The notes under the pieces were generated by a model that ran no database searches, was not told where the DNA came from, and was given only the letters and a program-made list of their open reading frames with translations. The translations under genes and the position numbers were made by a program. DNA of 64,000 nucleotides, from positions 1 through 64,000 of IMG/VR virus record IMGVR_UViG_3300047160_005525; one strand, given 5' to 3'. Positions 1 through 58,389 of the stretch are shown in pieces. Source of the DNA: a virus. Its lineage: Duplodnaviria; Caudoviricetes. Each line of letters begins with the position of its first letter. Positions within the stretch are counted from its first letter, which is position 1.

Positions 1-13
1 TAAAGACTAGCTT

Positions 14-1045: not shown

Positions 1046-1058
1046 CAGGAGGTTGATC

Positions 1059-1259: not shown

Positions 1260-1260
1260 C

Positions 1261-2585: not shown

Positions 2586-2586
2586 T

Positions 2587-2695
2587 GGCCGCCCCCTCCG
2601 GAGAGAGGGCGGCCCCCTGCCATGCCTTGCCCTACCCGGCCAGACCCGACCATGCCGAGCCAGACCTTGCCCTGCCGCAAGACTAAAAGTTTCAC
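2587..2695 (-). ncRNA. GGY/NN pentamer-array cassette A (12 units + hairpin + putative antisense promoter)
   Basis: 12 RCC-NN units at 2619-2678; hairpin GGCCGCCC/GGGCGGCC at 2587-2615; GTGAAA-N4-TAGTCT on - strand at 2680-2695. Confidence 0.75.
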
Positions 2696-3931: not shown

Positions 3932-4095
3932 CATCACGGCAGTTGCTTGACTTGCTGGATAACGTACTCACGCGCACTCCGCGCGATAAGCTTATCCGCG
4001 ATTGGTGCAAGGCAAGAGACAGCGGCGATATCGATGCATGGGAAGAAATTGAATTAGAGCTTGAGGAATTTGAAGAACGCGAGGATGCATCATGA
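3928..4095 (+). CDS. hypothetical protein
   Basis: GTGA overlap with the upstream stop; acidic C-terminus. Confidence 0.55.
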   Translation: MTSRQLLDLLDNVLTRTPRDKLIRDWCKARDSGDIDAWEEIELELEEFEEREDAS

Positions 4096-4358
4096 GCGAC
4101 CTAGAGGATCGAAGTGGTCAGCCTAAGCGGCTGACGGTTCGTGACTTGATCTCAGCGGCGCAGTCGGGCGATGCGAACACGCGCAAGCAGGCGTTCGCGG
4201 CGTATCTAGCTTGGAAGAAAGCAGCGCCGCAGATTCCTGATGCCAATCGACTCTCACAAATGGAATGCGACCTCTTGAACAAACTTTTTGTCGCAAAAGG
4301 GTTCAATGTCCCTGGCTACAAGCCGCCAGCGCCGCCTCGGCCTCGCCCGGCATACTGA
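4092..4358 (+). CDS. hypothetical protein
   Basis: ATGA overlap; open frame of 88 aa. Confidence 0.6.
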   Translation: MSDLEDRSGQPKRLTVRDLISAAQSGDANTRKQAFAAYLAWKKAAPQIPDANRLSQMECDLLNKLFVAKGFNVPGYKPPAPPRPRPAY

Positions 4359-7300
4359 CTTCATCCCGATCCGACCGCGTGACTGCTGGACGCAATGGCT
4401 CGACGAAATTATCTGGCCAGGGCGAGCGGCGCGCACGGAAAGCTTGCTGCAGCGGTGGGATGAAGACAAGCATCCGCGTGAGCCCGCGGGTAGCTCAGAA
4501 GGCGGGCAGTTCACGTCGGATGGTGGTGGTGAAGAAAGGGAAACGCATTCGTCTGTTCAGGCTGCGGTAGATGCTGCGCCGAAAGATGGCAATCTGGCAA
4601 TCTCTAATGTGAAAGGCACGCTTGATCAGGTGCGAGCACAGGCTAACCAAGCTGTTATCGATACCGGAAACCAGAAAGGAAAAGAATACGAAGTTGGTGC
4701 GGTGATCCACGTTGGTGATGAGTTGAAACATGGAACGGTAAAAGTTGGGATCGTTCACGGTACGAGCGAACAAATTCAGGAAGGTGAGCACGCTGGCAAA
4801 ATTCGGCATCATATCAAGTTTACTCACCTGGCTCCGGTCTTAAAACAATTTGGCGCTCATGAGTTAACGCATAATCATCCCAGTCTCTCTGTTGCGTCGA
4901 TGGGCGACATTGACGCGATGAATCGAACTCCAACAATGGTCTCCTTGCGTGCACATCATAGGGAAGATAGTTCATCGGTAATATCAATTCCGGGGCGAAG
5001 CGCTGATAATTTTCAACAATGGCGCGCGGAATTTAAGGGTCGGGAAGATTTGGGGAGCAATCCCGTACACTTTAAACAGTTTCTTCACGATGCTGGGGTA
5101 GGGATAATGAAGGCGCTGGGGGAGCGATTGTCGCTGGACGATAGAAAAAAGCTAGGAAATTTTGTTTCGGAAATATCCGAAAGATATAAGGATGATCCTG
5201 ACGCTGGTAAGAATTTTTTGTCAGGATATATTTTCCTTTCGGCTCTAGTGAAGGCAGGGATTGTTGAACACAACCATAAGATACCTAAAGAGCTAAAGCC
5301 AATTCTGAATAAATATAACGGATTGCTTTCGAAAGTTTTAAGAATTGGCAATAGCGTTATCGCTGATGCGCGTCGCGAAGATGTTAATCTGACCAAACAC
5401 GAGTGGAAGCCTGAGGAAGACAAGAAGGATTTTGATGAGAACGAATATTCACACTTTGACTGGGGCGACATGGAATGGATGTTTCGTTGGGACGAGTCGC
5501 AACACCCGCGCGAGCCGGGAGGTAGTCCAGAGGGCGGCCAGTTCAGTTCAGGCGGCGGTGGTGCAGGTGCCGAAGGTGGGTTCGAGTTCGTCTCGCCGAA
5601 CGTCTCCAACATTGGACTCGCGGTCGCGCACAATGCGCTTGGCGGAGAACGACAGAGCGCGCTGAAGCAGGCCTCGGGCGAGGTCGATCGGACGCTCGGT
5701 ATCACGAGCGAAGATCACGACATCATCGGCGCATGGAAGGATGGTGCCGAAAACTCGCTGATGTCGGTCTCGAAGGGAACGAGTTGGGATAAGCTCCGCG
5801 TTAGCGGAGCGATGAAGGGATGGCTCGGAGATCAGAAGCAGGTCCTGCTGTTTCGCGATGAGAAGGATGGGCCGGCTACGCTCTACAAGTTCGAATCTCC
5901 GGATGACGTTCAGAAAACTCATGAAAGAATGCTGGCCAATGGGCTTGCATTCCATACGCTGGTCCCGCACAAGGGTGGCACAACGGTTTTAGTCGCGGAT
6001 TTGGATGGATCGCTGCATCATGACACAATCGCAAAAGCCGCTGGCAAATCCCCCGTCGAATATCGGCAGGGAAAAGGCGAGTTCATCGGCACTCAGCAAG
6101 AAACCGGTGACGACCGAGCGCAGCGTGATGACGCGCGAAAAGCCTACGAAAAAATTATCAGACAATCCCCAGTTCAAGGAAGTAACGCAGCCTGGAACCG
6201 GATTCATAATCGGTGGGGTGAAACGCTAACCAAGCCGCATCCGCTCACAGCGGATAGCATCATGATCGAGGCCCCAGCGGTCAAGCGTAATTCGCTCAAA
6301 ATCAAGGACGTCGCCAAACAACTCAATGCCAGAGCAGGACACATCCTGCAGCAGCAGTTCGGCAAACCGTCCATCGAGGAATCCAGTCCGCAGACCGATG
6401 ACTATTTGGCTAGCTCTATCGCGGACGGCCTCAAGGCCGCGTTGACCAACGGCCACGCTTCACCGACATGGTACAGCGACAAGATGAAAGCGGCGATGAA
6501 CATCGCCGAGAGCATGCATCCCGAGATCGCGAAGAATCCCGACAAGCGATTCGGCTATATCGCAGCAATGGCGATTACCAGCCAGGGCGAGACGGTCGAT
6601 AGCAATGTTCGTCTTGCAGAGGAGGCTTACAAACAGTTCAATGAAACTGGAAAATTTCCAACCAATCTGGAAGTGAAGAATTCCGGCATCAATGGCAACA
6701 TGGAGAAGATGAACAAGCTGATCGAACGTTTTGGCGTCAAAGGCACGCATGAGTTCTTCGATAAGGAAATGACGGTGCGTGAACTCAAAGACATGACTGG
6801 TTACAAGGTCGGCCGCAGTTCGATGGATGATGTCGTCAACGGCTCGGCAGTGCTCGGCCCCAAGATCGGACTCGGGTTCTATCAAAACCTCAATGGCAAT
6901 TTCAAACCGTTGACGGCCGACATCTGGTTCATGCGCGCATGGGGGCGCATGACTAACACCGGCATTGGCCAGCCCGATATGAAACCGATTGCCGATCGTT
7001 TGCGCAATGCACTGAAAGAAGAGGGTCGCCCCGCGCCGGCTGATCTGGATAAGCTCGACAAGATTGCGACTGAAGTATTCGACCAGCACGAGCGTGATTT
7101 TGCCAAGCATGGCGACGAATACAAATCCGGCAAGCGCAGCAAGAGCGAATTGGTCTATGCGTCGGAGCGATTTGTCGATAGCTACGGCGGCAAGATGGTG
7201 GAAGCGCCGCGCGGGGCAGAGCATCGGCAATTCATCACCAGTGTATTCAACAAGGCGCTAGACAAGCTCAAGGCACAGGGCATCAATCTTTCGCCTGCAG

Positions 7301-7449
7301 CAGCGCAGGCGACGTGGTGGAATCCCGAGAAGGTGCTATACCAGCACCTCGGCGGTCGCACCAAAGACGTCTTCACCGATTACGAAAAGTCCTTGTCGAA
7401 ATACGAAAAGGAACATGGCCCCGCGTCGCAAGAAAGAAGTGCCGCTTGA
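4288..7449 (+). CDS. large multidomain head-associated (polyvalent) protein: JAB/MPN-like domain + unknown domain + HhH-glycosylase-like domain
   Basis: Two RWDExxHPREPxGSxEGGQFxS motifs; THNHPSLSVASMGD (JAB-like); GPKIGLGFYQNLNGNFKPLTADIWFMRAWGR (HhH-like); start codon uncertain. Confidence 0.7.
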   Translation: MSQKGSMSLATSRQRRLGLARHTDFIPIRPRDCWTQWLDEIIWPGRAARTESLLQRWDEDKHPREPAGSSEGGQFTSDGGGEERETHSSVQAAVDAAPKDGNLAISNVKGTLDQVRAQANQAVIDTGNQKGKEYEVGAVIHVGDELKHGTVKVGIVHGTSEQIQEGEHAGKIRHHIKFTHLAPVLKQFGAHELTHNHPSLSVASMGDIDAMNRTPTMVSLRAHHREDSSSVISIPGRSADNFQQWRAEFKGREDLGSNPVHFKQFLHDAGVGIMKALGERLSLDDRKKLGNFVSEISERYKDDPDAGKNFLSGYIFLSALVKAGIVEHNHKIPKELKPILNKYNGLLSKVLRIGNSVIADARREDVNLTKHEWKPEEDKKDFDENEYSHFDWGDMEWMFRWDESQHPREPGGSPEGGQFSSGGGGAGAEGGFEFVSPNVSNIGLAVAHNALGGERQSALKQASGEVDRTLGITSEDHDIIGAWKDGAENSLMSVSKGTSWDKLRVSGAMKGWLGDQKQVLLFRDEKDGPATLYKFESPDDVQKTHERMLANGLAFHTLVPHKGGTTVLVADLDGSLHHDTIAKAAGKSPVEYRQGKGEFIGTQQETGDDRAQRDDARKAYEKIIRQSPVQGSNAAWNRIHNRWGETLTKPHPLTADSIMIEAPAVKRNSLKIKDVAKQLNARAGHILQQQFGKPSIEESSPQTDDYLASSIADGLKAALTNGHASPTWYSDKMKAAMNIAESMHPEIAKNPDKRFGYIAAMAITSQGETVDSNVRLAEEAYKQFNETGKFPTNLEVKNSGINGNMEKMNKLIERFGVKGTHEFFDKEMTVRELKDMTGYKVGRSSMDDVVNGSAVLGPKIGLGFYQNLNGNFKPLTADIWFMRAWGRMTNTGIGQPDMKPIADRLRNALKEEGRPAPADLDKLDKIATEVFDQHERDFAKHGDEYKSGKRSKSELVYASERFVDSYGGKMVEAPRGAEHRQFITSVFNKALDKLKAQGINLSPAAAQATWWNPEKVLYQHLGGRTKDVFTDYEKSLSKYEKEHGPASQERSAA

Positions 7450-7714
7450 GACTGCGTCCTGGCTCGAAGACCCGGATGAGCCAGATCGTATGACCGACGT
7501 CGAGATGGACCGTATGGTCGAGGGCATCGCCAAGCGCTTCCCCGAACTGGTCGTCAAGCAAGAGTCACTGGCTGGCAAAGAGCAATGGCCGCGCGCCGGC
7601 GAGAGCCGCGAGGACTTTGTCGATCGCTGCATGACCGGCCTGATGGCTGGCGGCATGAGCAAGGACAAGGCGCGTGATGTCTGCTCAGCCAAGTGGAACG
7701 ATCACAAAAGCTGA
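7415..7714 (+). CDS. small head-cluster protein with PxxGESxxDFxxRC..C..W module
   Basis: Same motif occurs twice in the N-terminus of 8289-10967. Confidence 0.65.
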   Translation: MAPRRKKEVPLETASWLEDPDEPDRMTDVEMDRMVEGIAKRFPELVVKQESLAGKEQWPRAGESREDFVDRCMTGLMAGGMSKDKARDVCSAKWNDHKS

Positions 7715-8279
7715 TCTCAATTTCCTCTGGCCGATCAATTGGCTCGGTCTTCATCGCGAATATTTGCAAGCCGGCGAGATGGAGATCATCGCGGCGCTGC
7801 TGCGTGAGATCGAAGCCAAAGCCATCGTTGAAATAGGCTGCCGCGATGGAAGAACTGCTCGCGTGTTACTGCACAACGTGTCGTCTCTGGTCCATTACCT
7901 CGGGATCGATGTCCCGATGTCCTATGTGCCCGCCTTGGTTCACCAGCGCGCCGAGATGGTTCGTGATCCGGGGGCACTCGTCATCGATGACACGCGTTTC
8001 GAGCTAATGCTTCGCGAGCGCGGCTCGCTCGATCTCAAGCCTGAAGATTTCAATTTCAGATACGACGGAGTTTTTATTGACGGGGATCATTCTTTGAATG
8101 CTGTCCTGCATGACAGCGAGCTTGCAGGGACGATTGTACGCAAAGGCGGGATCGTGATTTGGCACGACTACAATCAGAGTCCGCATGTTGATGTGAAGCG
8201 TGCGCTTGATCGACTGATCGCTGAAGGTTGGCCGATCCAAGTTGTGGAAGGAACCTGGCTGGCATTTTGCAGAATGTAG
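7674..8279 (+). CDS. class I SAM-dependent methyltransferase (Methyltransf_24-like)
   Basis: IVEIGCRDGRT motif I; FIDGDHSLNAVLHD; GGIVIWHDY. Confidence 0.85.
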   Translation: MMSAQPSGTITKADLNFLWPINWLGLHREYLQAGEMEIIAALLREIEAKAIVEIGCRDGRTARVLLHNVSSLVHYLGIDVPMSYVPALVHQRAEMVRDPGALVIDDTRFELMLRERGSLDLKPEDFNFRYDGVFIDGDHSLNAVLHDSELAGTIVRKGGIVIWHDYNQSPHVDVKRALDRLIAEGWPIQVVEGTWLAFCRM

Positions 8280-8288
8280 GAGGCAGAG

Positions 8289-10967
8289 ATGCCATTACCC
8301 AAACCGCGTAAAGGGCAGAGTCAATCAGACTTCATGGCCGCCTGCATGCACGAAGCCTTTGGTTCTGACGCGCCGAAGGATCGTACACAACAGCAAGCGA
8401 TTGCAATGTGTATGGGGGCTTGGCGCGAAGCGCATCCATCGGCACCTCCGCCACCGAAGAAAGCCGATGACGACAAAGGCAAAGCCAAGAAACCTTACGG
8501 CGAGGTCGAGTACGCAGACCCTGGATATCAAGAGGACAAAAAGAAAAGATATCCGATCGACACCGAAGCTCACATCAGGGCCGCCTGGAACTATATTAAT
8601 AAGCCGAAGAATGCCGCGAAGTATTCGAGCGAAAATCTGGCAAAGGTTAAAGCCAAAATCGTTGCCGCTTGGAAGAAGGTGATCGACAAAGAGGGGCCGC
8701 CATCGGCTGCGGATAACAAGAAGCAGCAAATCGAACGCGTCATCAGGCGCTGGCATGACAAGTTCGGCCGTGATCCATCGGTGGCAATACTCGCACGTTT
8801 CAGTGCTGACGACATCCCTGAGCCGGATGACGATGAGAGCAAGTCGGATTTTCTTGACCGCTGCCAAGATGAAATCGGCGATGGTGACGATGACGACGAT
8901 GCCGAAGAAGCTTGCGAGCAGGCTTGGGAAGATGCGCAGGATGGCGATGACGAGGACGAAGAGCGGCGCGCGCCCGAGCTTGTACACAAGGCGCACAGCG
9001 GCGAGGTGGATGGCGTCGAGTTTGTGCTCTCGGACGACAGCATAGATCGCATGGGCGATGTAATTGTGAGTGAAGGATGGGACCTAGCTTCGTTCAAGCG
9101 CAATCCCGTCTGTCTCTTCAACCACTCTGCGATGCTGCCGATAGGTAAATGGGAAAATCTTCGCGTCGAAAAGGGTGAGTTGCGCGGTCATCTCCAACTT
9201 GCGCCCGAGGGTACGTCGCCGCGGATCGATGAAATTCGCAGGTTAGTCGATGCCGGCATTCTTCGTGCCGTCAGCGTTGGCTTCCGTCCGCTCGAAAGCG
9301 GTCCGCGACACGAAAACGGAAAAACGCTGGGAATGGTTTTTACGAAATCGGAACTGGTCGAGACATCTCTCGTATCGGTTCCGGCGAATCGCAATGCTCT
9401 CGCGGTTGCGAAGTCATTGCGTATTTCTCCTGCAACGCAGGACCTCGTCTTCGGCGGGAAAGCCTACAAAGACGAGACCACCGTGCGGCGCGGGCTAACT
9501 GGCGGGCATGCCAAAACTGCTCGAAGCGATGGAGGCGGCGTCATGTCGCTCACCCAACGAATCTCCGACTTGCAGACCTTGATGGTCGACAAGCGGGACG
9601 AACTGGAGTCGCACCTGGAAAAACAGGACGACTCGAATATCAGTGATAGTGATCTTGAGAAGACCCAAACGCTCAACGCCGAGATCGCGCAGCTGGAGAA
9701 GCAACACGCTGCGCTGGTCGAGGCGGAGAAGCGGTTGGCGAAGACGGCCGATGGCGGCGGCAATAGTGGTAGTCGCAGCCGGGCGCTGGCGACGACGGCG
9801 TTCACGCAGCCGAAGAACGACGGCGGTGTGACTGCTCCGCTCATCATTCCGAACGCGCGCAAGAAGGACCTCGATCCGATCGATCTGCTCGTGCGAGCGG
9901 GTACGATCAGCTACGTGTCGAAAGTCTGGAATCAGACCACGGAGAATACGCGGCTGAAGATCTATGGCGATGACGAGGGCACAAAGATCGTGTCCGACAT
10001 CATCTTACGCGCGCCATCGGCACCAGCAATGACGAACGTAGTTTCCTGGGCACAGGAACTCGTACAAGTTGTATATTCTGATCTGCTCAACCTGCTGTTA
10101 GCCAAGAGTATCTACACCAGACTTGCAGCGAAGGGGCTTTCGTTGAGCTTCGGCCGTGCGGGCAAGATCAACATTCCTGCTCGCTCGCGTACGCCGACTA
10201 TAGCTGGGAGCTTTGTGGGTGAGGGGCAGGCCATTCCAGTTCGAATGGGCGCTTTTACAACGCAGACTCTCGTTCCGAAGAAAATGGCCGTCATCAGCGT
10301 GTGGTCTCGTGAGATGGACGAGCATAGCATTCCTGCGATTGAAGGCGTGCTACGCGAAGCAGTGCAAGAAGATACCAGCGTCGCGCTCGACAGTGTACTC
10401 ATTGATACGAATGCGGCGACTGCGATCCGGCCGCCTGGTCTGCTCAATGGCGTAACGGCTACAACTGCGACGGCGGGCGGTGGCCTCGACGCGTTGATCG
10501 GTGACATCAAGGCGCTGGTCGGTGCGTTGTCGACGAATACCTATGGCAATGTTCGCAGTCCGGTATGGATCGCAAATCAAGTCGACATGCTGTCGGCTGG
10601 GTTGGCCATGGCGGCGAATACCGGTATCTTCCCGTTCCGTGACGAAGTTGCGGCCGGGCGGCTGGCGAATATACCTATTATCGACAGCGCGACGGTTCCG
10701 GCTAAAACCCTTATCTTGGTTGACGCTGCGGACTTTGTCGCGGTGGGCGGGGAAGCTCCCCGATTCGAGTTAAGCGATCAAGCGACTCTTCATATGGACG
10801 ATTCCGCGCCTGCAGAACTTGTTGGCACGGGCAGTCCTGGAGCGGTTGCTTCACCGCAGCGCTCGCTCTGGCAAACCGACTCGATCGCGCTTCGGATGAT
10901 CATGCCAATGAATTGGTGGCAGCGCCGTCCGGGTACGATTGCCTACACGACCGGAATCACCTGGTAA
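8289..10967 (+). CDS. HK97-type prohead protease - major capsid fusion with N-terminal accessory domains (DUF6582-like)
   Basis: Protease motifs DRMGDVI, LFNHS, LRAVSVGFRP, ELVETSLVSVPAN; C-terminal HK97 capsid; YADPGYQEDKKKRYPIDTEAHIRAAWNYIN recalled as DUF6582-like. Confidence 0.92.
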   Translation: MPLPKPRKGQSQSDFMAACMHEAFGSDAPKDRTQQQAIAMCMGAWREAHPSAPPPPKKADDDKGKAKKPYGEVEYADPGYQEDKKKRYPIDTEAHIRAAWNYINKPKNAAKYSSENLAKVKAKIVAAWKKVIDKEGPPSAADNKKQQIERVIRRWHDKFGRDPSVAILARFSADDIPEPDDDESKSDFLDRCQDEIGDGDDDDDAEEACEQAWEDAQDGDDEDEERRAPELVHKAHSGEVDGVEFVLSDDSIDRMGDVIVSEGWDLASFKRNPVCLFNHSAMLPIGKWENLRVEKGELRGHLQLAPEGTSPRIDEIRRLVDAGILRAVSVGFRPLESGPRHENGKTLGMVFTKSELVETSLVSVPANRNALAVAKSLRISPATQDLVFGGKAYKDETTVRRGLTGGHAKTARSDGGGVMSLTQRISDLQTLMVDKRDELESHLEKQDDSNISDSDLEKTQTLNAEIAQLEKQHAALVEAEKRLAKTADGGGNSGSRSRALATTAFTQPKNDGGVTAPLIIPNARKKDLDPIDLLVRAGTISYVSKVWNQTTENTRLKIYGDDEGTKIVSDIILRAPSAPAMTNVVSWAQELVQVVYSDLLNLLLAKSIYTRLAAKGLSLSFGRAGKINIPARSRTPTIAGSFVGEGQAIPVRMGAFTTQTLVPKKMAVISVWSREMDEHSIPAIEGVLREAVQEDTSVALDSVLIDTNAATAIRPPGLLNGVTATTATAGGGLDALIGDIKALVGALSTNTYGNVRSPVWIANQVDMLSAGLAMAANTGIFPFRDEVAAGRLANIPIIDSATVPAKTLILVDAADFVAVGGEAPRFELSDQATLHMDDSAPAELVGTGSPGAVASPQRSLWQTDSIALRMIMPMNWWQRRPGTIAYTTGITW

Positions 10968-11031
10968 TCTTACGAACTGAGTGTGGGCGATTCACTTCGC
11001 CCACGTTGCTTCTCACCACAGGAGGAAAGCC

Positions 11032-11229
11032 ATGTCGACTCCTACGCCTACACAAGCAGAATGCGACGCCGCCGCACTTGGCCAGAATACTCTCACACAC
11101 GATGACGACGGCAGCGGGCCGGACCCATATGCCGTGAAGACATCAGAGGCGAAGAAGCCAACGGCGACTGGTGCCTACCAGACGCGGCAGGCAACACCAG
11201 CGCGTTCGACCACACATAGCGCAAGCTAA
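11032..11229 (+). CDS. small hypothetical head protein
   Basis: AGGAGG RBS; follows the capsid gene. Confidence 0.65.
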   Translation: MSTPTPTQAECDAAALGQNTLTHDDDGSGPDPYAVKTSEAKKPTATGAYQTRQATPARSTTHSAS

Positions 11230-11244
11230 ATCCTCCCGGAACCT

Positions 11245-11303
11245 CGGAGTCTCTGTTCGCTCCCGTCAGTGCCCAAACACCGGCCAGAGGCTCCGCTTTT
11301 TTT
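11245..11303 (+). terminator. intrinsic terminator after capsid operon
   Basis: CGGAGTCTCTG/CAGAGGCTCCG stem followed by T7; the loop is long. Confidence 0.5.
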
Positions 11304-11324
11304 CCTGTTTAGAAGTTATGACGA

Positions 11325-12773
11325 ATGGCAGCACGCGCGCTTTTGGCTCGTGGTTTGCGAACGGTCGCCCGTGCGATTGAAGGACAGTATCGACCAGGAC
11401 CCTATAATCTTCCGATAACCGGCGGCTGGTTGCCCGATGGGGCGCCGATCAATTGGTGGCAAACGGGCATGATCCCGGTCACTGGTTATCGTAATGCCAT
11501 GGTCGAAGCATGCGTTTCCGCATATTCGCAAACAACTGCAATGCTCCCCGGCGATCACTGGAGAACGAACACTAAGGGCGGGCGCGAGCGGGTCAAGAAC
11601 AGTGCGTTGTCACGCATACTGCGCCATCCGAATGCATACCAGAGCATCTCCGATTTCATGCTCAACGCGACACGGCAACTTTATTTGGACGGCAATGCTT
11701 ATGCACTCGCGCTGCGCAACGATAGGTTCGAGGTTACTGAACTTCATCTGATGGACAGCCGGGTTTCCCGCCCGGAGCTTGCTGTCGACGGTTCGGTTTT
11801 TTACCAACTCGCTGGCAACATGGTGATCCAGCAGCAGGTCGGAGACAGTGCTCGGTTGATGGTGCCACAGCGTGACGTGCTGCATATTCGATTGCATGCA
11901 GATCGGCGCTGGCCTTATCCGATCTTCGGCGAGTCACCGTTGCTCGCGGCGTTGGGCGACATCGAGACAGGCTCGGCGATCACCGATCAGCAAATCCAAT
12001 TCTATCGCAATCAGGCGCGACCGAGCGCGGTGCTGTCGACCGACTTGCAACTCGACAAAGATCAAGTGCAGTTTCTACGTGACCGCTGGGACGAGCAGGC
12101 GCGCGGGCTTAATCAAGGTAAGACGCCGATCTTGACTGCGGGCTTGAAGGTGCAGCCATGGACGGTGGGCGGGCGCGACGCGCAGATCGCGGAGATGCTG
12201 AAGATCAGCGAATCGCACATTGCGCTGGTGTATCGCATTCCATTGCCTTTGCTTGGATTGACAAGCGGATCAGCCGGCGGCACGGAAGCACTCATACAAT
12301 TATGGCTGGCCTCAGGGCTCGGTTTTTGTCTCAATCATATCGAGGAATCTTTTGGCTTACTCTTTCAGCTTAAAGGTCAGCCCGATGAGTATTGCGAGTT
12401 TGATACGTCTGCCCTTTTACGCTCGCTGTTCAAAGATAGGATTGAAGGCTTAACCCGCGCAGTACAAGGCGGTGTTTATAGTCCTAATGAAGCCAGGGCG
12501 GAAGAAGGTTTAGAGAAAACACCCTATGGCGACGAGCCGCGTGTTCAGCAACAGGTCGTGCCACTTTCTGCCGCCGCAGGAATCCCGCACGCGCCGGGGC
12601 CGCACGCACCGCCGAGCGCGGCTGGACAACCGGCACCAGGTGCTCCGCAGCCAAAGCCGCCGACAGCGGAAACGCCAACAGCGGTAAAGGATCATCGCGA
12701 TGACATACGACGAGAAGCACAACGGCTCCACGCCGTCGTCAGTCGGATCGGAAGAAACCGATCTGTTAACTGA
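11325..12773 (+). CDS. HK97-family portal protein
   Basis: LRHPNAYQSISDF, LYLDGNAYA, VLHIRL, FYRNQARPSAVL, GVYSPNEARAEEGL. Confidence 0.93.
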   Translation: MAARALLARGLRTVARAIEGQYRPGPYNLPITGGWLPDGAPINWWQTGMIPVTGYRNAMVEACVSAYSQTTAMLPGDHWRTNTKGGRERVKNSALSRILRHPNAYQSISDFMLNATRQLYLDGNAYALALRNDRFEVTELHLMDSRVSRPELAVDGSVFYQLAGNMVIQQQVGDSARLMVPQRDVLHIRLHADRRWPYPIFGESPLLAALGDIETGSAITDQQIQFYRNQARPSAVLSTDLQLDKDQVQFLRDRWDEQARGLNQGKTPILTAGLKVQPWTVGGRDAQIAEMLKISESHIALVYRIPLPLLGLTSGSAGGTEALIQLWLASGLGFCLNHIEESFGLLFQLKGQPDEYCEFDTSALLRSLFKDRIEGLTRAVQGGVYSPNEARAEEGLEKTPYGDEPRVQQQVVPLSAAAGIPHAPGPHAPPSAAGQPAPGAPQPKPPTAETPTAVKDHRDDIRREAQRLHAVVSRIGRNRSVN

Positions 12774-14445
12774 AGTTACGCGCGAGGTTCTTGGCGAAGT
12801 CATTGTACAAGAGCGCGAGAAAGCGCAGCGCGACTGGCAACGCGACCGCGAATTGATAACAGCGCAAGCTGAGGAGGCAATTGCCCGTGCTGAATCCAAA
12901 GCGGAAACGGCAATCGCTCGTGCTGATGCTAGAGCAGAAACAGCCATCGCTCGCGCTGATGCCGTAGCGGAGGCGACCGCGCGTGAGGCTGCCGAGATGC
13001 GCGCGCAGATGAGCGAGATGCGCTCGGAGATCGAGCGGATGATGTCGATCCGCTTGGCCGAGCTTCGTGATGGAGCGGTCGGGCCGAAAGGAGAAAAGGG
13101 CGATCAGGGTCTGATGGGGCCGCAGGGGGAACGCGGTGTCGCTGTCATGGGCGAAACGGGGCCGCCAGGACTGAAGGGCGAGCCTGGAATCGCTGGCCGC
13201 GACGGCCGCGACGGCGCTCCGGGGCCAGCAGGGCCGCAGGGCGAACGCGGAAGCGATGGCATCAGCATTAAAGGTCCGATTGGTCCCGAGGGTCCTCCAG
13301 GGCGCGACGGTGCTCAAGGCCCTCCTGGAGAGAGCATCGTAGGTCCGCAAGGTGAGCGGGGATTACCAGGTGAAGCGATTGTTGGGCCGCAGGGTGAACC
13401 GGGTTTGAAGGGTGATAAGGGCGACGTAGGCGAGCGCGGTTTGCCTGGAGAAGCGATTGTAGGGCCGCAAGGTGAGCAAGGCGTTGCTGGCGTACAGGGT
13501 GAACGCGGTGAAGCAGGAGAGAAAGGCGATGTCGGCGAGCGAGGTATCCAAGGCGAAGCCGGGCCGTCCGGCTCGGCCGGTCCAAAGGGCGATCCAGGAG
13601 AGCGCGGCGAGCAAGGCCCGCAAGGTGAGGTCGGACCCATTGGTGCCAAAGGCGACGTCGGAGAAAAAGGCAATGCCGGTGATCCCGGTGTGCCAGGAAT
13701 ACGAGGAGAAAAAGGAGAAAGAGGCGAGCGAGGACTGGACGGAGCAATTGGCTCTCAGGGTGTGCCTGGAAGCGTGGGAGAACGCGGAGAAAAAGGGATT
13801 GACGGCGCCCGCGGCGAAAGGGGCGAGCGCGGCGAGCAGGGAGCGCGCGGCGAGAAAGGCGATCAGGGCATTCCTGGTGGAGTTGGACCTGCTGGTCAAC
13901 GAGGTGAACGCGGCGAGCGCGGCGAGCAAGGTTCGCCTGGTAAATTGACGATCTGCAAAGTCTGGCAGAAGGACGAGATCGTCTACGAATCTCAATTGCG
14001 CACGCACGAAGGTTCGTTATGGCAGGCGCTGAAAGATACAGCGCAGCTTCCCGGTCACGCTGATTGGATTTGTCTCGCCACGGCTGGCATCGATGGCGCT
14101 GGCATCAACCCGTGCGGGCTCTATCAGGAAAATCATGTGTACCGTCGTCTCGACTTGGTCACTGTCAACGGGTCAACCTTCGTTGCTAAGCGCGATGCTC
14201 CTGGCATATGCCCCGGCGAGCATTGGCAGCTTACTGCTAGCCAAGGCAAACGTGGTATTGCCGGCGAAAAGGGCGAGCGTGGTCCGATTGGGCCAAAGGG
14301 TGAAGCCGGTCAAGCCGCTCCGCGCATTACAGGCTTCCGTCTTGATCCGAAAAATTATCGTGCCGTTGCACGAATGTCTGATGGCTCAGAACTGCCGCTA
14401 GAACTGCGCGAACTATTCGAGCAGTTCAATGATGAGACTCGATGA
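12700..14445 (+). CDS. collagen-like head-associated protein
   Basis: N-terminal coiled coil, long Gly-X-Y tract, C-terminal W-rich modules (VWQKDEIVY...GSLWQALKDT). Confidence 0.85.
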   Translation: MTYDEKHNGSTPSSVGSEETDLLTEVTREVLGEVIVQEREKAQRDWQRDRELITAQAEEAIARAESKAETAIARADARAETAIARADAVAEATAREAAEMRAQMSEMRSEIERMMSIRLAELRDGAVGPKGEKGDQGLMGPQGERGVAVMGETGPPGLKGEPGIAGRDGRDGAPGPAGPQGERGSDGISIKGPIGPEGPPGRDGAQGPPGESIVGPQGERGLPGEAIVGPQGEPGLKGDKGDVGERGLPGEAIVGPQGEQGVAGVQGERGEAGEKGDVGERGIQGEAGPSGSAGPKGDPGERGEQGPQGEVGPIGAKGDVGEKGNAGDPGVPGIRGEKGERGERGLDGAIGSQGVPGSVGERGEKGIDGARGERGERGEQGARGEKGDQGIPGGVGPAGQRGERGERGEQGSPGKLTICKVWQKDEIVYESQLRTHEGSLWQALKDTAQLPGHADWICLATAGIDGAGINPCGLYQENHVYRRLDLVTVNGSTFVAKRDAPGICPGEHWQLTASQGKRGIAGEKGERGPIGPKGEAGQAAPRITGFRLDPKNYRAVARMSDGSELPLELRELFEQFNDETR

Positions 14446-14447
14446 AA

Positions 14448-14571
14448 GAGGGCCGACTCTTCGGATGAAAAGTCAGCCCTCACCTCGCCATGCCTTGCCT
14501 AGCCTCGCCGTGCCTCGCCCTGCCTGGCCAAGCCTGGCCTCGCCAAGACCATGTTAGTCTAGCATTTTCAC
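14448..14571 (-). ncRNA. GGY/NN pentamer-array cassette B (13 units)
   Basis: Hairpin 14448-14481; RCC-NN units 14482-14546; GTGAAA-N4-TAGACT on - strand at 14556-14571; NN code matches 14416-14445. Confidence 0.8.
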
Positions 14572-17937: not shown

Positions 17938-20031
17938 ATGCCTATCTCTTTCGCAAACATTCCATCTAATATTAAGGTCCCTTTATATTGGGTGGAAGTG
18001 GATAACGCGAATCAAGCGTAGGTCCCTTTGTCGAGCAATCGACATCGAACATCGGGTGAACTCGGGGAAACTCCAGATCGGACAATCCCGAGCCAAGCTG
18101 CCGCAACGGCAGAAGGTGTAACGACTAGAGCGCAAGCTCGTAGGATCAAGCGATCCGAAGCGCCCGACGCCCCAAGTGGGCGGTGATATAGTCTCCTCCA
18201 CATAGGAATATGTGGCAGTCCGCAAAAGGACGGTAGCGAGAGTAGCGAACTCGCTGCGAAGATTAGGCCCTCAATGGCAGGTTTGCCGACGCTCAATCTG
18301 CGAGCGTTGCTGATCGGCACGATGAATGCTGACGGCACTGGCACTCAAGACATCCCGGTTGCCATAGGCACGCAAGCATCAGCCGACGAGAAGTTCGGCG
18401 TAGGCTCTGAACTCGCGCAGATGTTCAAAGCCTACTTTAAAAATAATTTTGCCAATGAGGTGTGGGCGGGGCCCGTGGCTCCGTCTACTAACTCGCAAGC
18501 AGCAAGTGGCACGATCACGGTGACGACGCCGCCGAGCGAGGCCGGAACGATCAATCTCTACATCGCCGGTCATCATGTGGCGGTCAACGTCGGCATGAGT
18601 GATACGGCTGAGCAGGTTGCGCTTGAAATCGCTAACGCGATTAATGCAATCGAACCCGCTTTGCCGGTGACAGCGGCAGCAGGGACCGGAGCGACAACTA
18701 CGGGAACTGGCACCGGCAATTCGACGGGCACGACCAGTCTGACCGTCTCGTCGTCAACCGGTACCATCGCGATCGGCGCGACCGTGACTGGCACCGGCGT
18801 TCCTGCCAACACGACGATTGCGAGTCAGACCTCGGGCACGATCGGCGGCGATGGCGTGTACGTCACCAGTAACCCGACGACGCTGTCGGCGGCAGCGATC
18901 ACGACCACGCTGACCAGCAATACGAACGTGGTCACGGTGACTTGCACCTTCCTGGGCGTCAACGGCAACGAGATTCGCATCGAGCAGGACTACTACGGAA
19001 TGCTCGGCGGCGAACGGCCGGTGACGGGGCTGGTGCTGACGTTGCCGGCGACAAACTTCTTGACCGGCGGTGTCGGCACGCCGGACTTTACCAACTTGAT
19101 CATAGCCATGGGCGAGACGCCGTTTGAGTATCTCTGCGTGCCTTACTGGGATTCCAACACCTTGCTCGCGTTTGAGGAGGAGATGGGATTCGGAGATTCG
19201 GGTCGCTGGGGATGGCAGCGTCAGCTGTTCGGCCATGTGTTCCTTGCCAAGCGCGGTCAATACTCGGACCTCGTCACCTGGGGCTTGACCCGCAACAGCG
19301 GATTGATCTCGGTGCTGGCGTTCGAGAATCCCACGCCGACGCCGATGTACGAGATGGCGGCGGCTTACACGGCGAAGGCGCAGCGCGCGCTCAGCAACGA
19401 CCCGGCCAGGCCGCTGCAGACCTTGCAACTCAACGGCACGCTGCCGGCGAAGCTGCACGATCGCTTCAACTTCGTCGAACTCAACTCCCTCGCCTCAAGC
19501 GGCCTTGCCATCCAGAAGTGTTGGGAAGGCTCGGGCATGTCGCAAATCGCCCGCGAGCAAACAACCTACCAACTTAATCTTTATGGCCAGGGCGATGACG
19601 CGTACGAACTCGTCACGACGCTCGCGACGTTGGCGAAGATTCTCCGCAATCAACGTCACGCGATCACGAGCAAGTATCCCAGACACAAACTTGCGAATGA
19701 CGGAACACGCTTCGGGCCAGGGCAGGCGATTGTGACCCCGGCTATTATCAAAGCCGAATTAGTCGCACAATACCGGATGGATATGTGGGACGGCCTCGTC
19801 GAGGACGTCGCCGACTTCAAGCGCTTCCTCCTGGTGGAAAGGGACCCGGATAACCCTAATAGGTTAAACGTGCTTTATCCGCCTGACTTGATAAATCAGC
19901 TGCGAATCTTCGCCGTGCTCGCACAATTTAGACTCCAGTACGATCGTGGGATCGATGTTGCCATTATCGGCTATACGGGACTCGCAGGAATCGCTGGACC
20001 TGGTGGTGCCTTAACTGGTACTGGTGGCTAA
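17938..20031 (+). CDS. contractile tail sheath (Mu gpL-like), interrupted by a group I intron at 18004-18267
   Basis: Exon 1 MPISFANIPSNIKVPLYWVEVD + exon 2 PSMAGLPTL...; sheath motifs YTAKAQRALSNDPARPLQTL, VERDPDNPNRLNVLYPPDLINQLRIFA. Confidence 0.92.
18004..18267 (+). mobile_element. ORF-less group I intron (264 nt)
   Basis: U at 5' splice site pairs with IGS GGUCC; P3 TCGGGTG/CGCCCGA; P4 CTCGGG/CCCGAG; P7 GACTA/TAGTC; P9 CCACATA-GGAA-TATGTGG; terminal G; in-frame TAG removed by splicing. Confidence 0.9.
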
Positions 20032-46005: not shown

Positions 46006-46197
46006 ATGCGTAAGCTTTTAGACGAAGCCTTGAATGACGCCTTCAAAGTGCAGTTCAATAACTTGTTCAATGTTCTTTGCGCAGCCCCAGATCATGATCC
46101 GGCAATTCAACGATTTCATCGCGGTTTAAAAAGGGCCGTTGAGATGCGCCGTCATGCCACGAGGGTTATCGAGCACATGCTTGAGGAAACCAAATGA
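46006..46197 (+). CDS. hypothetical protein
   Basis: Coupled to the endolysin; resembles the C-terminal half of the upstream gene. Confidence 0.55.
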   Translation: MRKLLDEALNDAFKVQFNNLFNVLCAAPDHDPAIQRFHRGLKRAVEMRRHATRVIEHMLEETK

Positions 46198-47798
46198 TCA
46201 TCGCGCTGAGTTCAGGCCATGCTCGTGATTGCCCAGGCGCTTCGGACATCATCGATGAGGTCACGGAGGCGCGACGCGTGGTCGAGCGTACAGCGCAATA
46301 TCTTCGCACCGCTGGCATCGATGTCCGCGTTTTCCATGACAACGAATCGACATCTCAGGACGAGAATCTAGACGCCATCATTGACTGGACGAATGCCCAA
46401 GATGCCGATCTCGCGGTCTCGATTCATTTCAATTCGAACGGGACCACGTCTCAGCCGGTCGGTACTGAATGTTGGTACAAGACGCAACGAGAGTTAGCGG
46501 CTGACGTCGCTGCCGAGATTGCTATATCTTCAGGGCTTATCGATCGAGGCGGCAAACAGACCGATTCTTTGGCATTTTTGAATGGGACCGAAGCTCCAGC
46601 GATCTTGGTAGAGGTCTGTTTCGTAAATTCACAGGCGGACTGCACAACCTATCGACAGAAATTCGATGACGTTTGTCGCGCTCTCGCCGGTGCGATATCG
46701 AGCGAGACAATCCCGCCGAGCGAGCCGGGTGAACGTGCCCCGCGTCCTGAATGGCCGCAATTCCCCGAAGCGCCAGAGGGACCACCATGGGACAGCAGAC
46801 CTGAAGAAGTTCCGATCGAGGATCGACCGACACTACGGCGCGGCGATGAAGGCCCTCATGTGCTCGACATGCAGCGCATGATCCCGCGGTTCACCGGTGA
46901 CTTCGACGGCGACTTTGGACCGACGACGGAAGACAATGTTCTGCGCTATCAGGACTCGCGCGGGCTCGATGCTGATGGCATCTGCGGGCCGATTATGTGG
47001 GAGGCGCTGTACACGCACAAGCTTCCTGTGCCGCCTCCGCCGGCTCCGCCTGGTGCGCTTACGCCCGAGCAGCAGGTCGTGATCATGCGGCTCGCGAACG
47101 ATTCTGCGATTGCTGATTACTATTGGCAGGATCGTGGTATTGCGCCAAACGGTTGGATCACTGGCATGGCATTGGCGTTCGGGCAAACTTACAAGAAATG
47201 GAAGGTTGGTCATCCGGCTGCACTCGAGATGGCGAAAGCGCGCATGGACACCGACAAGGACGTGCTCAATCTCTATCGCGATGAGTTCGAGCAGCTTGGT
47301 ATGCCAAATGAAGATGATGGGGCTGATACGTTGCGGCATCTCTTTGCCCTTCTTATCGGGCACGGCATGAGAGAGAGTTCGGGCGCCTACTGCGAAGGTC
47401 GAGACATGAGCGCCGACAATGTCGAAAGCGATACGGCTGAAGCTGGCGCCTTCCAGACTTCATACAACGCGCACACCGCGAGCGATCCGGAATTCGACAA
47501 CCTGATGGATGAATATCTGCACGGTCTATCGCCGGGTTATGAAGATGCTTTCTCGGAGGGCGTATCATGTTCGTCGGACGATTGGGAAAATTACGGCAGT
47601 CCAGAAGAGCGTGGCTATCAATTTCAGCGGCTGAGCAAAGACGCACCTGCGATGGCTGCCGAGCACTGCGCACTTACCTCACGAAATCTCGCGAATCATT
47701 ACGGGCCTTATCTGCGTCACGAGACCGAACTCAAGGAGGACGCAGATAACATGCTTGAGGCTGTGGCGGCTTATCTTGACGAAACCGAGCAAGCATGA
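46194..47798 (+). CDS. endolysin: N-acetylmuramoyl-L-alanine amidase (Amidase_3) + peptidoglycan-binding domain + C-terminal domain
   Basis: SSGH..DEVTE, VSIHFNS, ILVEVCFVNS; DGDFGPTTEDNVLRYQDSRGLDADGICG. Confidence 0.92.
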   Translation: MIIALSSGHARDCPGASDIIDEVTEARRVVERTAQYLRTAGIDVRVFHDNESTSQDENLDAIIDWTNAQDADLAVSIHFNSNGTTSQPVGTECWYKTQRELAADVAAEIAISSGLIDRGGKQTDSLAFLNGTEAPAILVEVCFVNSQADCTTYRQKFDDVCRALAGAISSETIPPSEPGERAPRPEWPQFPEAPEGPPWDSRPEEVPIEDRPTLRRGDEGPHVLDMQRMIPRFTGDFDGDFGPTTEDNVLRYQDSRGLDADGICGPIMWEALYTHKLPVPPPPAPPGALTPEQQVVIMRLANDSAIADYYWQDRGIAPNGWITGMALAFGQTYKKWKVGHPAALEMAKARMDTDKDVLNLYRDEFEQLGMPNEDDGADTLRHLFALLIGHGMRESSGAYCEGRDMSADNVESDTAEAGAFQTSYNAHTASDPEFDNLMDEYLHGLSPGYEDAFSEGVSCSSDDWENYGSPEERGYQFQRLSKDAPAMAAEHCALTSRNLANHYGPYLRHETELKEDADNMLEAVAAYLDETEQA

Positions 47799-47911
47799 GA
47801 AACGGCCGCCCATTTTGTGACGACCGTTTCTCCCCTGCCATGCCTTACCGGGCCATGCCGCGCCCCGCCAGACCGGACCTTGCCACGCCCAACCGGGCCA
47901 TGCCGCGCCCT
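47797..47911 (-). ncRNA. GGY/NN pentamer-array cassette C (15 units)
   Basis: Hairpin 47797-47832; units 47837-47911; NN code matches the endolysin at 47136-47174. Confidence 0.82.
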
Positions 47912-48231: not shown

Positions 48232-48333
48232 ATGACTGAAGAACAAATGAATGCCGCCAAGATCGCCGGCGTTGTTGCCTTGATTGTTATAGCGGTCGCG
48301 CTGTTTGGTTGGCTGATGGGCTGGTGGGGCTAA
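48232..48333 (+). CDS. 33-aa single-TM peptide
   Basis: AGGAGG RBS; MTEEQMNAAKIAGVVALIVIAVALFGWLMGWWG. Confidence 0.7.
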   Translation: MTEEQMNAAKIAGVVALIVIAVALFGWLMGWWG

Positions 48334-48334
48334 C

Positions 48335-48724
48335 ATGGCTCGCATACCGGCTCATCTGATTCGTCGTCTAAAACAAGAGGAGAGATGCATGAGCTATACG
48401 CTTCCAAGCGGGATGCAAGTTACTTGCCAAATTTCTTACGTTGATGCCGCGGGCAATCCCGCTGTCGTTGATGGTGATGTGGCGTGGTCATCGAGCGATG
48501 AAACTAAGCTCGTCGTCTTTGTCAACTCACAGGATTCGACAAAGGTCGTCCTGCGAACTGTCGGGCCAGTCGGCCTCGTTCAAGTCAAAGCAACGGCTGA
48601 TGCTGATTTAGGCGCGGGCGTTCGCGAACTTGTCACTACCGCCGATGTCGACATTATCGCCGGTGAGGCAGTTGCCGGCATGATTTCACCAATCGGTCCC
48701 GCCGAGCCAATCCCCGCGGCATAA
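48335..48724 (+). CDS. Ig-like beta-sandwich protein
   Basis: YVDAAGNPAVVDGDVAWSSSD..VQVKATADADLG. Confidence 0.65.
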   Translation: MARIPAHLIRRLKQEERCMSYTLPSGMQVTCQISYVDAAGNPAVVDGDVAWSSSDETKLVVFVNSQDSTKVVLRTVGPVGLVQVKATADADLGAGVRELVTTADVDIIAGEAVAGMISPIGPAEPIPAA

Positions 48725-48726
48725 AT

Positions 48727-48833
48727 GAGAGCGAGAGCTTTCGCTCCCGCTCTCCCCTACCTTGCCTCGCCGGGCCGTACCATACCATTCCTTGCCCGAC
48801 CACACCCCGCCGCGCCCCACCAGACCTCGCCGC
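48727..48833 (-). ncRNA. GGY/NN pentamer-array cassette D (15 units)
   Basis: Hairpin 48727-48754; units 48759-48833 (one TCC variant); NN code matches 48602-48640. Confidence 0.82.
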
Positions 48834-48850: not shown

Positions 48851-48937
48851 ATGACCCAATCTTGGCGCCAAATTCTGATCTGGAGTGCGTTATTGGTCGC
48901 TGGTATTGCATTGATCATGCTAGCGTTCGGGGGCTGA
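48851..48937 (+). CDS. 28-aa single-TM peptide
   Basis: MTQSWRQILIWSALLVAGIALIMLAFGG. Confidence 0.5.
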   Translation: MTQSWRQILIWSALLVAGIALIMLAFGG

Positions 48938-49392: not shown

Positions 49393-49500
49393 GAGAGCGA
49401 GAGCTTTTGGCCCTCGCTCTCCCTTGCCTCGCCGCGCCGCGCCAAGCCTTGCCGTGCCTGGCCTAGCCACGCCCTACCCCGCCTAGCCGCGCCCCGCCAC
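49393..49500 (-). ncRNA. GGY/NN pentamer-array cassette E (15 units)
   Basis: Hairpin 49393-49421, nearly identical to that of D; units 49426-49500; NN code matches 49600-49635. Confidence 0.8.
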
Positions 49501-56835: not shown

Positions 56836-57117
56836 GACGCTTCATGCAAGTGCATGACGCTATTTCCTGGCCAGGCCATCGGCAGGCCATCGCCTCGGCA
56901 GATTTTGCAAGAAACCCGCATGGAATGGGCAGAAGTCGAAAAGATCACCCTCCCCACAAGGGGGAGGGGCGATCATATGGCATGATATGGGATGATACTT
57001 GGTTGTCAACTAAGTACTTGACTTTCCGAGGCGAAAGTCCACATCTATCAATGACGCTTCATGGAGCTTCATGGCTCGCCTGGCCATGGACAGGCCACCA
57101 GAGAGAAGGATCGGAAG

Positions 57118-58389
57118 ATGACCAGCTTCAAGCCCAAGGATCTGCAGACGCCCGGAGGGCGCCGCGGATTACTCCCTCGCCCCAAATGCTACTTCGTCTC
57201 GCTGTGCCCCGGTGTCTCGCTTGGTTACCGTCGCCTCGCGGATGTAGCCGGCGCGCCGCGCGCGGGCGCCTGGACGCTGCGCAAGGCTGACGGCAAGGGT
57301 GGCGGCTGCCCCAAGGGTTTCGCCGTCGCCGACGACGTCGTGCAGGCCAACGGCAACGAGATCCTGACCTACAAGCAGGCCGTCGCCAAGGCGCTGGCTT
57401 TCGCCGGCGGCACCACTGCCCAGGATGATCCCCCGATCACCGTCGCTATGGCCATCCTCGACTACACCAAGTCGCTGATCGAACGCGGCCGCCGTCCCTA
57501 CAACGCGACCCGCCTTTGGCGCCTCGACAAGGACGGCAATCCAATTCCCGGTCTGGTTCCGGCCTGGCTAGCTGATCGCCAAGTCGGCGCCCTAACGATC
57601 AAGGAGCTTGAGCGGTGGCGCGAGAGTCTCGGCTACAAGCACAAGGGCACCCTCAATCGCACCATCAAGCCGCTCAAGAAGGCGCTGAACCGCGCTGCCG
57701 CGCGCGATCACCGTATCACCAACACGCATGTGTGGAGCGGTGCGGAAAGCGGCTTGCCGCTCATTCCCAAGGCTGACGGCGTGCGCCGCGTCTTTCTTGA
57801 GCCGGCTCAGGTGAATGCGCTGATCGATGCTGCATACGCGTATGAGGCCGATCGCGGCTTTGGCTTGTTCGTGGAAACTGGCGCCGAAACTGGCGCGCGC
57901 CCGAGCCAGCTATGGAAACTCAAGGTCTCCAGCCTCAACGGCAACCGCGTGATGATGCCGCCGTCCAAGAAGGGGCCAGATGGCAAGGATCTGCCTCCAG
58001 TCGCGGTCCCCATCACTCCGGTCCTGGCCGCCAAGCTTCGCGAGGCGGCGGGGCGCCGCAGCCCCAGCGAGCCGCTCCTGCTTCGCGATGAGCGCTTCGA
58101 GCAGCGTGAATGGGTGAGCGACAACGGCGCTTGGATAGATCCCTTCAACGCAATCGTCGCCAAAGTCCGCGAGCAGATGGAGTTGCCCGCGGACGTCACC
58201 TACTACGCGCTTCGCCACTCCACCGCGAAGCGACAGATCCGGGCTGGCATTGATCTGGTCACCATCGCCCAGCGCCTGGAGACCAGCGTGGCCACGTTGC
58301 AGAAGCACTACGCTGCCGCCATCAGCGAAATCGCCGGCGATGACACGGTCGGGCTACTCGAACGCCCCGCGCTCCGCGTAGTCGCATGA
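57118..58389 (+). CDS. int: tyrosine integrase
   Basis: N-terminal arm-binding segment (SLGYRR..GAWTLR); ETGARPSQL, YALRHS, TSVATLQKHY catalytic motifs. Confidence 0.92.
   Translation: MTSFKPKDLQTPGGRRGLLPRPKCYFVSLCPGVSLGYRRLADVAGAPRAGAWTLRKADGKGGGCPKGFAVADDVVQANGNEILTYKQAVAKALAFAGGTTAQDDPPITVAMAILDYTKSLIERGRRPYNATRLWRLDKDGNPIPGLVPAWLADRQVGALTIKELERWRESLGYKHKGTLNRTIKPLKKALNRAAARDHRITNTHVWSGAESGLPLIPKADGVRRVFLEPAQVNALIDAAYAYEADRGFGLFVETGAETGARPSQLWKLKVSSLNGNRVMMPPSKKGPDGKDLPPVAVPITPVLAAKLREAAGRRSPSEPLLLRDERFEQREWVSDNGAWIDPFNAIVAKVREQMELPADVTYYALRHSTAKRQIRAGIDLVTIAQRLETSVATLQKHYAAAISEIAGDDTVGLLERPALRVVA

Follow-up and report, generated by a model that had tools for sequence, protein, structure and literature searches.

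A stand-alone VIPR-type guide in an uncultured soil phage spells the Ig-like gene allele of related phages beside its own mismatched copy

In the late region of an uncultured soil phage, the gene for a stand-alone Ig-like protein is directly followed by a run of pentameric repeats (cassette D) that, when read on the opposite strand as a gapped guide, spells a stretch of this gene imperfectly. This arrangement raises the question of whether the guide is directed at the gene that it adjoins or at that of other phages, and of why it lies where it does. The format of the cassette is that of VIPR, which was described only in 2026 and for which natural targets are known mainly from enterobacterial and Pseudomonas systems. 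A VIPR guide RNA (vrRNA) consists of 9-16 GGY/NN repeats and a structured 3' tail. The Vipr protein, a Cas7-like RAMP protein, binds the GGY triads with its protomers, and double-stranded DNA is read by pairing of the NN dinucleotides, with one base in each unit (usually at the wobble position) passed over (10.64898/2026.04.26.720920). An NN match of 80% is the published threshold for a target, and the published systems are without self matches of ≥80%. Type II VIPR represses rather than cuts. In cryo-EM analyses of the SUSP1 system, subunits 8-12 near the 3' tail were resolved in every unwinding intermediate, and the addition of further protomers and R-loop formation progressed 3' to 5' (10.64898/2026.04.26.720927). 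Orphan vrRNAs exist on 346 VIPR-null phages and F5 satellites, and for solo guides that target vrRNAs a self-match below the non-self match is already in print (10.64898/2026.10.15.759431). Data on mismatch tolerance were not found in the accessible parts of 10.64898/2026.04.26.720920 and 10.64898/2026.04.26.720927.

The source genome is a 76,776-nt single IMG/VR record; the window, i.e. the whole stretch of DNA analysed, comprises its first 64 kb. The phage is myovirus-like and belongs to an uncultured soil lineage (for features, see Table 1). Searches with its DNA or its Ig-like protein returned no cultured relatives, and portal identity was ≤32%. No large terminase was detected in the whole contig with three Pfam models. 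The + strand of the window contains five runs of 13-16 pentamers of the form NN(G/A)CC, each located after a stop codon and a hairpin, which on the - strand read GG(C/T)NN followed by a hairpin. One further solo unit (S6) and a main array of at least 10 units lie beyond the window. Two small single-pass membrane proteins (48233-48334 and 48851-48937) flank the Ig-like gene and cassette D; located downstream of the endolysin, they may be holin- or spanin-like parts of a lysis cassette.

Table 1. Positions of guide cassettes, their matches and landmark genes, numbered along the source genome unless a contig handle is given.
Feature	Position	Strand	Description
Head-protease fusion	8289-10967
Portal	11325-12773
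Tail sheath	18274-20031
Mu-type baseplate proteins			present in genome
Endolysin	46194-47798
Ig-like protein gene	48389-48724	+	stand-alone, Big_2-type, 111 aa
Own near-target of D	48602-48640	+	21/26 match to guide D in the Ig-like gene (codons ADLGAGVRELVTT)
Integrase	57061-58389
Solo vrRNA A	2587-2678	-	same architecture; no target found
Solo vrRNA B	14448-14546	-	unique best own-genome match 16/22 (20/28 with more units) at 14416
Solo vrRNA C	47797-47911	-	hairpin tail and 16 units
Solo vrRNA D, whole cassette	48727-48833	-
vrRNA D, 3' tail	48727-48754	-	12-bp hairpin, GAAA (GNRA) loop
vrRNA D, guide region	48752-48833	-	5' NN (GC, 48832-48833) and 16 GG(Y)NN pentamers
Solo vrRNA E	49393-49500	-	hairpin nearly identical to that of D
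Solo guide S6	71355-71439 (L001:7355-7439)	-	array-type handle
ParB_N + DUF5131 fusion	72361-73905 (L001:8361-9905)	-	514 aa; between main array and S6
ParB_N/DUF6551-like gene			398 aa; abuts main array
Methyltransferase-like ORF			264 aa; beside main array; by motifs only, no Pfam match
Main vrRNA array	75991-76776 (L001:11991-12776)	-	at least 10 units; runs off contig end
Solo vrRNA of L036/L038	L036:1046-1130, L038:968-1050	-	one 4-nt unit (GGCA), UUCG hairpin tail

On the - strand of 48752-48833, cassette D starts with (c)GC, which is followed by the pentamers GGCGA GGTCT GGTGG GGCGC GGCGG GGTGT GGTCG GGCAA (1-8) and GGAAT GGTAT GGTAC GGCCC GGCGA GGCAA GGTAG GGGAG (9-16). The first 13 dinucleotides are GC GA CT GG GC GG GT CG AA AT AT AC CC, with GA AA AG AG after them. 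All 16 units carry GG and 15 of them a pyrimidine at position 3. The exception is unit 9 (GGAAT), whose purine occupies a position from which purines are reportedly excluded by the pocket of SUSP1 Vipr. A GGAAT unit is common to D (48752-48831) and S6 (71355-71439), and the target register of D is unbroken through it. Units 1-12 are variable. Units 13-16 (GGCGA GGCAA GGTAG GGGAG) are similar to the 3' units that are constant in the main array (GGCGA GGCAG GGATA); the NN strings are all different across at least 15 units of the genome.

The hairpin of D overlaps the last pseudo-unit, in which it starts, and 3 nt separate its end from the stop codon of the Ig-like gene. It folds with -24.4 kcal/mol on the - strand, where it includes a G·U pair (z = -6.2), and with -19.0 kcal/mol on the + strand, where an A·C mismatch takes its place. 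All five window cassettes have such a structured 3' tail, a hairpin and not the pseudoknot of SUSP1. In each case, the - strand hairpin is perfect, with G·U pairing, and the + strand form is interrupted by A·C and weaker by 4-8 kcal/mol. The functional RNA would therefore be that of the - strand, which is antisense to the late genes. A consensus scan revealed no sigma-70 promoter on the - strand, and the hairpin motif of D and E had 0 matches in IMG/VR. As judged from its sequence, D is a VIPR vrRNA at the RNA level. With no Vipr match on the contig and a distance of ~27 kb from the main array, it is a solo vrRNA by the published definition.

When the 76,776-nt genome was scanned with D on both strands (1-nt skip), the site in the neighbouring Ig-like gene emerged as the unique best match (21/26 at 48602-48639), located in codon register; the scores after it were 17/26 and, at 18 sites, 16/26. 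The probability that a 2-kb window contains the genome-wide best match is P ~0.028. The own codons at 48602-48640 read GCT GAT TTA GGC GCG GGC GTT CGC GAA CTT GTC ACT ACC and deviate from the guide at units 3 (TTA vs CT), 9, 10, 11 and 13. The first-pass annotation had given the order of the 13 dinucleotides, had counted 8/13 exact dinucleotides and 21/26 nt, had placed the site about 120 bp from the repeats and had described the mismatch at unit 3 as a synonymous Leu codon (CTN/TTA). The order was found as given on the - strand, a recount from the codons of ORF 48389-48724 yielded the same figures, the synonymous change was seen as TTA in the own gene against CT in the guide, and the distance measured 112 bp. 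The own score depends on the units counted: 21/26 (80.8%) for 13 units, 19/24 (79%) for 12 units without the 5' GC, and 23/32 (72%) for all 16. A chance match was ruled out by this genome-wide scan together with the shuffled guides, alternative skip rules and reversed guide described below.

For an exact scan of IMG/VR, units 2-13 of D were written as NNx, which gives a pattern with 24 fixed bases. It matched two contigs, UViG_3300047160_017351 and UViG_3300047160_025520 (L005 and L006), both from one metagenome; the number of matches expected by chance for 24 fixed bases is far below 1. The sites (L005:8610-8648 and L006:1733-1771) are in frame, cover the homologous codons of Ig-like genes and encode ADLGAGVRNIITP, and the first GC extends the match to 26/26. 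Both loci are thus complete matches under the rules for a natural target (≥80%, 1-nt skip, wobble base skipped). The first-pass annotation had proposed a variant allele of the upstream gene as the sequence spelled by D and had predicted that homologs carry the corresponding codons in the second half of the pattern. Both are supported: these two homologs contain the predicted codons (26/26) and the metagenome protein clusters P0010 and P0012 the same peptide. L005 and L006 differ from each other at 4 of the 13 skipped (wobble) bases, as predicted by a wobble-skipping code. When 281 kb of related loci were read with other skips (0, 2 or 3 nt), the best scores were 17-19/26; the maximum was 20/26 for 200 shuffled guides and 18/26 for the reversed guide. 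Equivalent 24-base patterns of guides B, C, S6 and E had 0 exact matches each in IMG/VR. The D pattern had 0 matches in 596 Gb of prokaryote genomes, so that no host or prophage target was identified for this guide. D and its two sites appear to constitute a clean, statistically controlled natural guide-target pair.

The two contigs come from relatives of the phage, with head, portal, TPR-glycosyltransferase and other proteins 48-74% identical at the amino acid level and Ig-like homologs at 64-66%. In both of them, the Ig-like gene is located inside the head-morphogenesis module, between the head and portal genes, and no guide cassette follows it in either contig. The missing cassettes are compatible with naive alleles and prove nothing.

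The Ig-like protein yielded an AF2 model with a pLDDT of 87.5, whose best PDB match was the Ig-like C-terminal domain of lambda gpV; weak matches to Big_2 were obtained for half of the family members tested. At least 386 members of the family were found in metagenomes, and the closest relatives are P0002 (83% identity) and P0003 (78% identity). At the target site, its members read ADLGxGVR, followed by the variable segment x[LI][VIT]T[PTLV], within which the NIITP allele is a minority variant (~2/120 protein clusters). Among 76 family loci compared with guide D, two scored 26/26, one 25/26 and four 24/26. The mode was 20-22, so that the 21/26 of the own gene is average for the family; none of 71 metagenome loci reached 26/26. 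At the Leu position read by unit 3, CTN is present in 65/70 relatives; the synonymous TTA of the own gene is the rarest Leu codon in the genome (4.8%). Four of the five own mismatches lie toward the 3' end of the guide, near the point at which the R-loop starts in SUSP1 VIPR. If this polarity, established for SUSP1, applies to the different VIPR type considered here, their clustering would protect the own allele. The own copy is predicted to be spared by its five mismatches, at a match (80.8%) that sits at the published 80% threshold. As the variation of the site is combinatorial, some extant allele could be matched by a guide that stems from any allele of the family, with no need for current selection. 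Within the gene, the target stretch ranks 41 of 99 in conservation; the 'most conserved site' logic, which has been reported for targets in satellites, is inapplicable to D.

Guides act in trans, and the position of D beside its own near-target therefore needs explaining. For four of the six solos (B, C, D and S6), the highest-scoring site of the whole genome is unique and lies in an adjacent gene less than 1 kb away (P ~0.028 each). For B, this own site comprises the last codons and the stop codon of a collagen-like fibre gene. C has a match of 20/26 at 47136-47173 that is antisense to the endolysin gene and wobble-phased, and S6 one of 21/28 in a RecE-like exonuclease gene (own AYTIQALHEMALND). 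For E, neither local nor database searches gave a convincing target. Among the main-array guides, 7 of the 8 tested were without a local best match, the exception being M1, an array unit beside the ParB/DUF6551-like gene with a tied best match of 17/24 at a distance of less than 1 kb (P = 0.043). In a relative of the phage (L036/L038, 56% identical), a different solo vrRNA is located at the same spot after the Ig-like gene. Its guide matches the N-terminus of the next gene, an endolysin (18/22), and spells ISSGHALHCQG vs ISSGHAKHCQG in this neighbouring protein; where the guide reads TC, the own Ser codon is AGT (TCN to AGT switch). As far as adjacency is concerned, a putative attack element beside a predicted immune allele is found for B, C, D, S6 and L036/L038. 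The simplest explanation that this suggests is selection for linkage of a guide with a resistant allele, and homing-like spread is a bolder alternative. Such a layout is not described in the accessible parts of the three VIPR preprints.

The units of the main array share a constant handle (GGCGA GGCAG GGATA followed by ttt(t)cgatgattgc) without a hairpin, and the array represents a second class of vrRNAs in the genome beside the hairpin-tailed solos. The ParB_N-DUF5131 fusion and the ParB/DUF6551-like gene are candidate nuclease-type accessories of the guide system; ParB was not found to be mentioned in the accessible part of the VIPR paper. The 264-aa and 398-aa ORFs beside the array had no match to PDB sequences, and the 398-aa protein had no relatives in IMG/VR. 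A 37%-identical homolog of the latter abuts a vipr gene and 12 GGY-NN arrays in L078 (Blastocatellia MAG contig DASTMP010000475.1), with arrays of the same linker style as those of the phage. By its gene content, L078:10001-15000 is a full VIPR locus that comprises a 191-aa Vipr, the 12 GGY-NN arrays and two ParB-like genes. The 191-aa ORF (L078:11534-12106) has ~2,300 relatives and gave an AF2 model with a pLDDT of 96, for which the best PDB matches in Foldseek were Csm3/Cas7 RAMPs (E ~5e-7); based on this model, we take it to be Vipr. The L078 guides had no match to the phage. The L078 locus adjoins RecE/RecT-like and methyltransferase-like genes and is in this respect syntenic with the early region of the phage.

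A Vipr profile built from 64 family proteins and seeded on L078:11534-12106 detected no vipr in the six-frame translation of the 76.8-kb contig (positive control 1.7e-69). As candidates for Vipr, the 264-aa ORF was rejected because it is methyltransferase-like by motifs, the 398-aa ORF because it is ParB_N/DUF6551-like, and the remaining unannotated ORFs because no RAMP features were recognised in them by eye. The main array is cut off by the end of the contig, which has no terminal repeat and lacks a detectable terminase, so that sequence is probably missing; IMG/VR lists the record as 100% complete by CheckV. The assembly may be truncated, or the phage may truly lack vipr.

We consider it likely that D is a - strand VIPR guide gene directed against the Ig-like allele of rival phages, with an own copy that is mismatched, predicted to be spared and kept linked to the guide. 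D would be transcribed from the - strand as a stand-alone vrRNA and loaded by a Vipr protein, whose protomers would settle on the GGY triads and let the NN dinucleotides pair with rival double-stranded DNA, every third base being skipped. Programmed for the ADLGAGVRNIITP allele of the Ig-like gene in the head module of rivals, the complex would bind there and block late-gene transcription of the rival during co-infection or superinfection; in L005 and L006, a transcriptional roadblock in this module would plausibly affect downstream virion genes. We infer RNA expression, Vipr loading, silencing and self-sparing from the guide and its matches. The own copy matches partly because it is homologous to the target; it differs at 5/26 read positions (4 in the 3'-proximal part of the guide) and should be spared. 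As the guide lies beside the resistant allele, recombination would be unable to part the weapon from the antidote.

The partial match next door might instead be the purpose of the cassette, with D acting as an autoregulator of its own Ig-like gene or of the local late/lysis transcript and an 81% match being sufficient. The own site is indeed the best match in the genome, lies 112 bp away and, at 80.8%, reaches the published target threshold. An autoregulator should track its own allele, however, but 26/26 is attained only in other phages and the score of the own gene does not exceed the family average. Moreover, the own mismatches cluster toward the 3' end, a rare synonymous codon removes a match, and the published systems show no self matches of ≥80%, all of which makes autoregulation highly improbable. 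Slightly less improbable, and still hard to reconcile with the data, is an inert relic, inherited or recombined in, whose exact match reflects the limited allele space of the site. Such a relic would agree with the contig in which no vipr was found, with the one unit that has a purine at the Y position and with the combinatorial variation of the site (x[LI][VIT]T[PTLV]). It does not account for the intact GG in 16/16 units and the perfect hairpin, for the strand-specific G·U pairing kept by five cassettes, or for the four solos that have independently kept their best match in the adjacent gene. In addition, the 56%-identical relative has a different, equally well-formed guide in the same position, which points to turnover under selection.

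A further reading concerns the source of the protein. The phage could truly lack vipr, and D and the other cassettes could be orphan guides that use the Vipr of a co-infecting phage or resident prophage and turn the machinery of that element on its own Ig-like and other genes, according to the 'guns for hire' logic described for satellites and for phages that are VIPR-null. The contig yielded no Vipr homolog, its CheckV completeness is 100%, and the orphan vrRNAs of 346 VIPR-null phages and F5 satellites provide a precedent in print (10.64898/2026.10.15.759431). We nevertheless regard orphan guides as unlikely: the end of the contig inside an array, with neither a terminal repeat nor a terminase, indicates that sequence is probably missing, an array of at least 10 units and 6 solos far exceeds the 1-2 orphan guides reported, and in L078 a homolog of the adjacent ParB/DUF6551-like gene is found together with a real vipr.

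The linkage of guide and resistant allele may also have a stronger meaning. The solos might be linked poison-antidote (gene-drive-like) cassettes, in which a guide less than 1 kb from a resistant allele of the gene that it attacks spreads with it as a unit in mixed infections or stays unseparated from it; we put this forward as a tentative and rather doubtful extension. It would explain the existence of dispersed guides even though guides act in trans, and VIPR guides would then be counterparts of free-standing homing endonucleases that are programmed by RNA. If the array-side ParB-like nucleases cut Vipr-bound DNA, spread by homing-type gene conversion would be possible.

Free-standing homing endonucleases of T4-like phages (seg, mob) adjoin the gene that they attack in relatives, and their own allele is immune owing to few substitutions. 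Cassette D resembles them in that a putative attack element lies beside a predicted immune allele and differs in that recognition would be by RNA; no nuclease activity is known for this cassette. Inter-viral conflict is also served by virus-borne mini-CRISPR arrays, in which a virus-encoded guide acts against close relatives and the own copy differs at the target. These arrays have contiguous spacers and depend on host Cas proteins, whereas the code of D is gapped and its protein would be of the Vipr type; a guide against relatives and a different own copy are common to both.

In comparison with type II VIPR (Escherichia phage SUSP1 and a Pseudomonas fulva prophage, with Vipr, vap1 and vrRNAs; 10.64898/2026.04.26.720920 and 10.64898/2026.04.26.720927), D shares the GGY-NN guides of 9-16 units, which end in a structured 3' cap, the code in which one nt per unit, the wobble base, is skipped, and target sites on either strand of competing mobile elements. 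It differs in that its tail is a simple 12-bp GNRA hairpin and not a pseudoknot, that it lies alone in the lysis/late region ~27 kb from the main array, and that no vipr was found on the contig. Moreover, the array neighbours are ParB_N/DUF6551-like and methyltransferase-like and not vap1, and the host is an uncultured soil lineage. The solo vrRNAs of VIPR-null SUSP1-like phages and F5 satellites (10.64898/2026.10.15.759431) are, like D, guide genes that stand alone, at a distance of more than 20 kb from any vipr, and their self-match likewise scores below the match to rivals. They occupy the place that vipr formerly had or belong to a satellite, whereas the six solos described here are scattered over structural, lysis and recombination modules. 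Furthermore, their targets are vipr, other vrRNAs, satellites or host REP decoys, in contrast to the structural Ig-like gene of rivals spelled by D, and in the present genome 4/6 solos (including D) lie beside the gene whose foreign allele they spell.

The locus extends the target classes of VIPR to a structural (Ig-like) gene that rival phages carry, with D resembling a weapon stored beside its own antidote. It also adds a layout in which 4/6 dispersed guides lie beside the gene attacked in relatives, the own copy being mismatched, which suggests selection on the linkage of guide and immune allele. Guide D in combination with the NIITP alleles and with its own ELVTT allele provides a testable pair with which seed polarity and the tolerance of mismatches could be measured for a VIPR other than type II. 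The head module of the phage that carries D (window 1-14500) is unusual in that it contains a second capsid-like gene (14-1045), as well as a TPR-glycosyltransferase-9-like gene (2696-3931) and an unannotated 1053-aa ORF (4288-7449).
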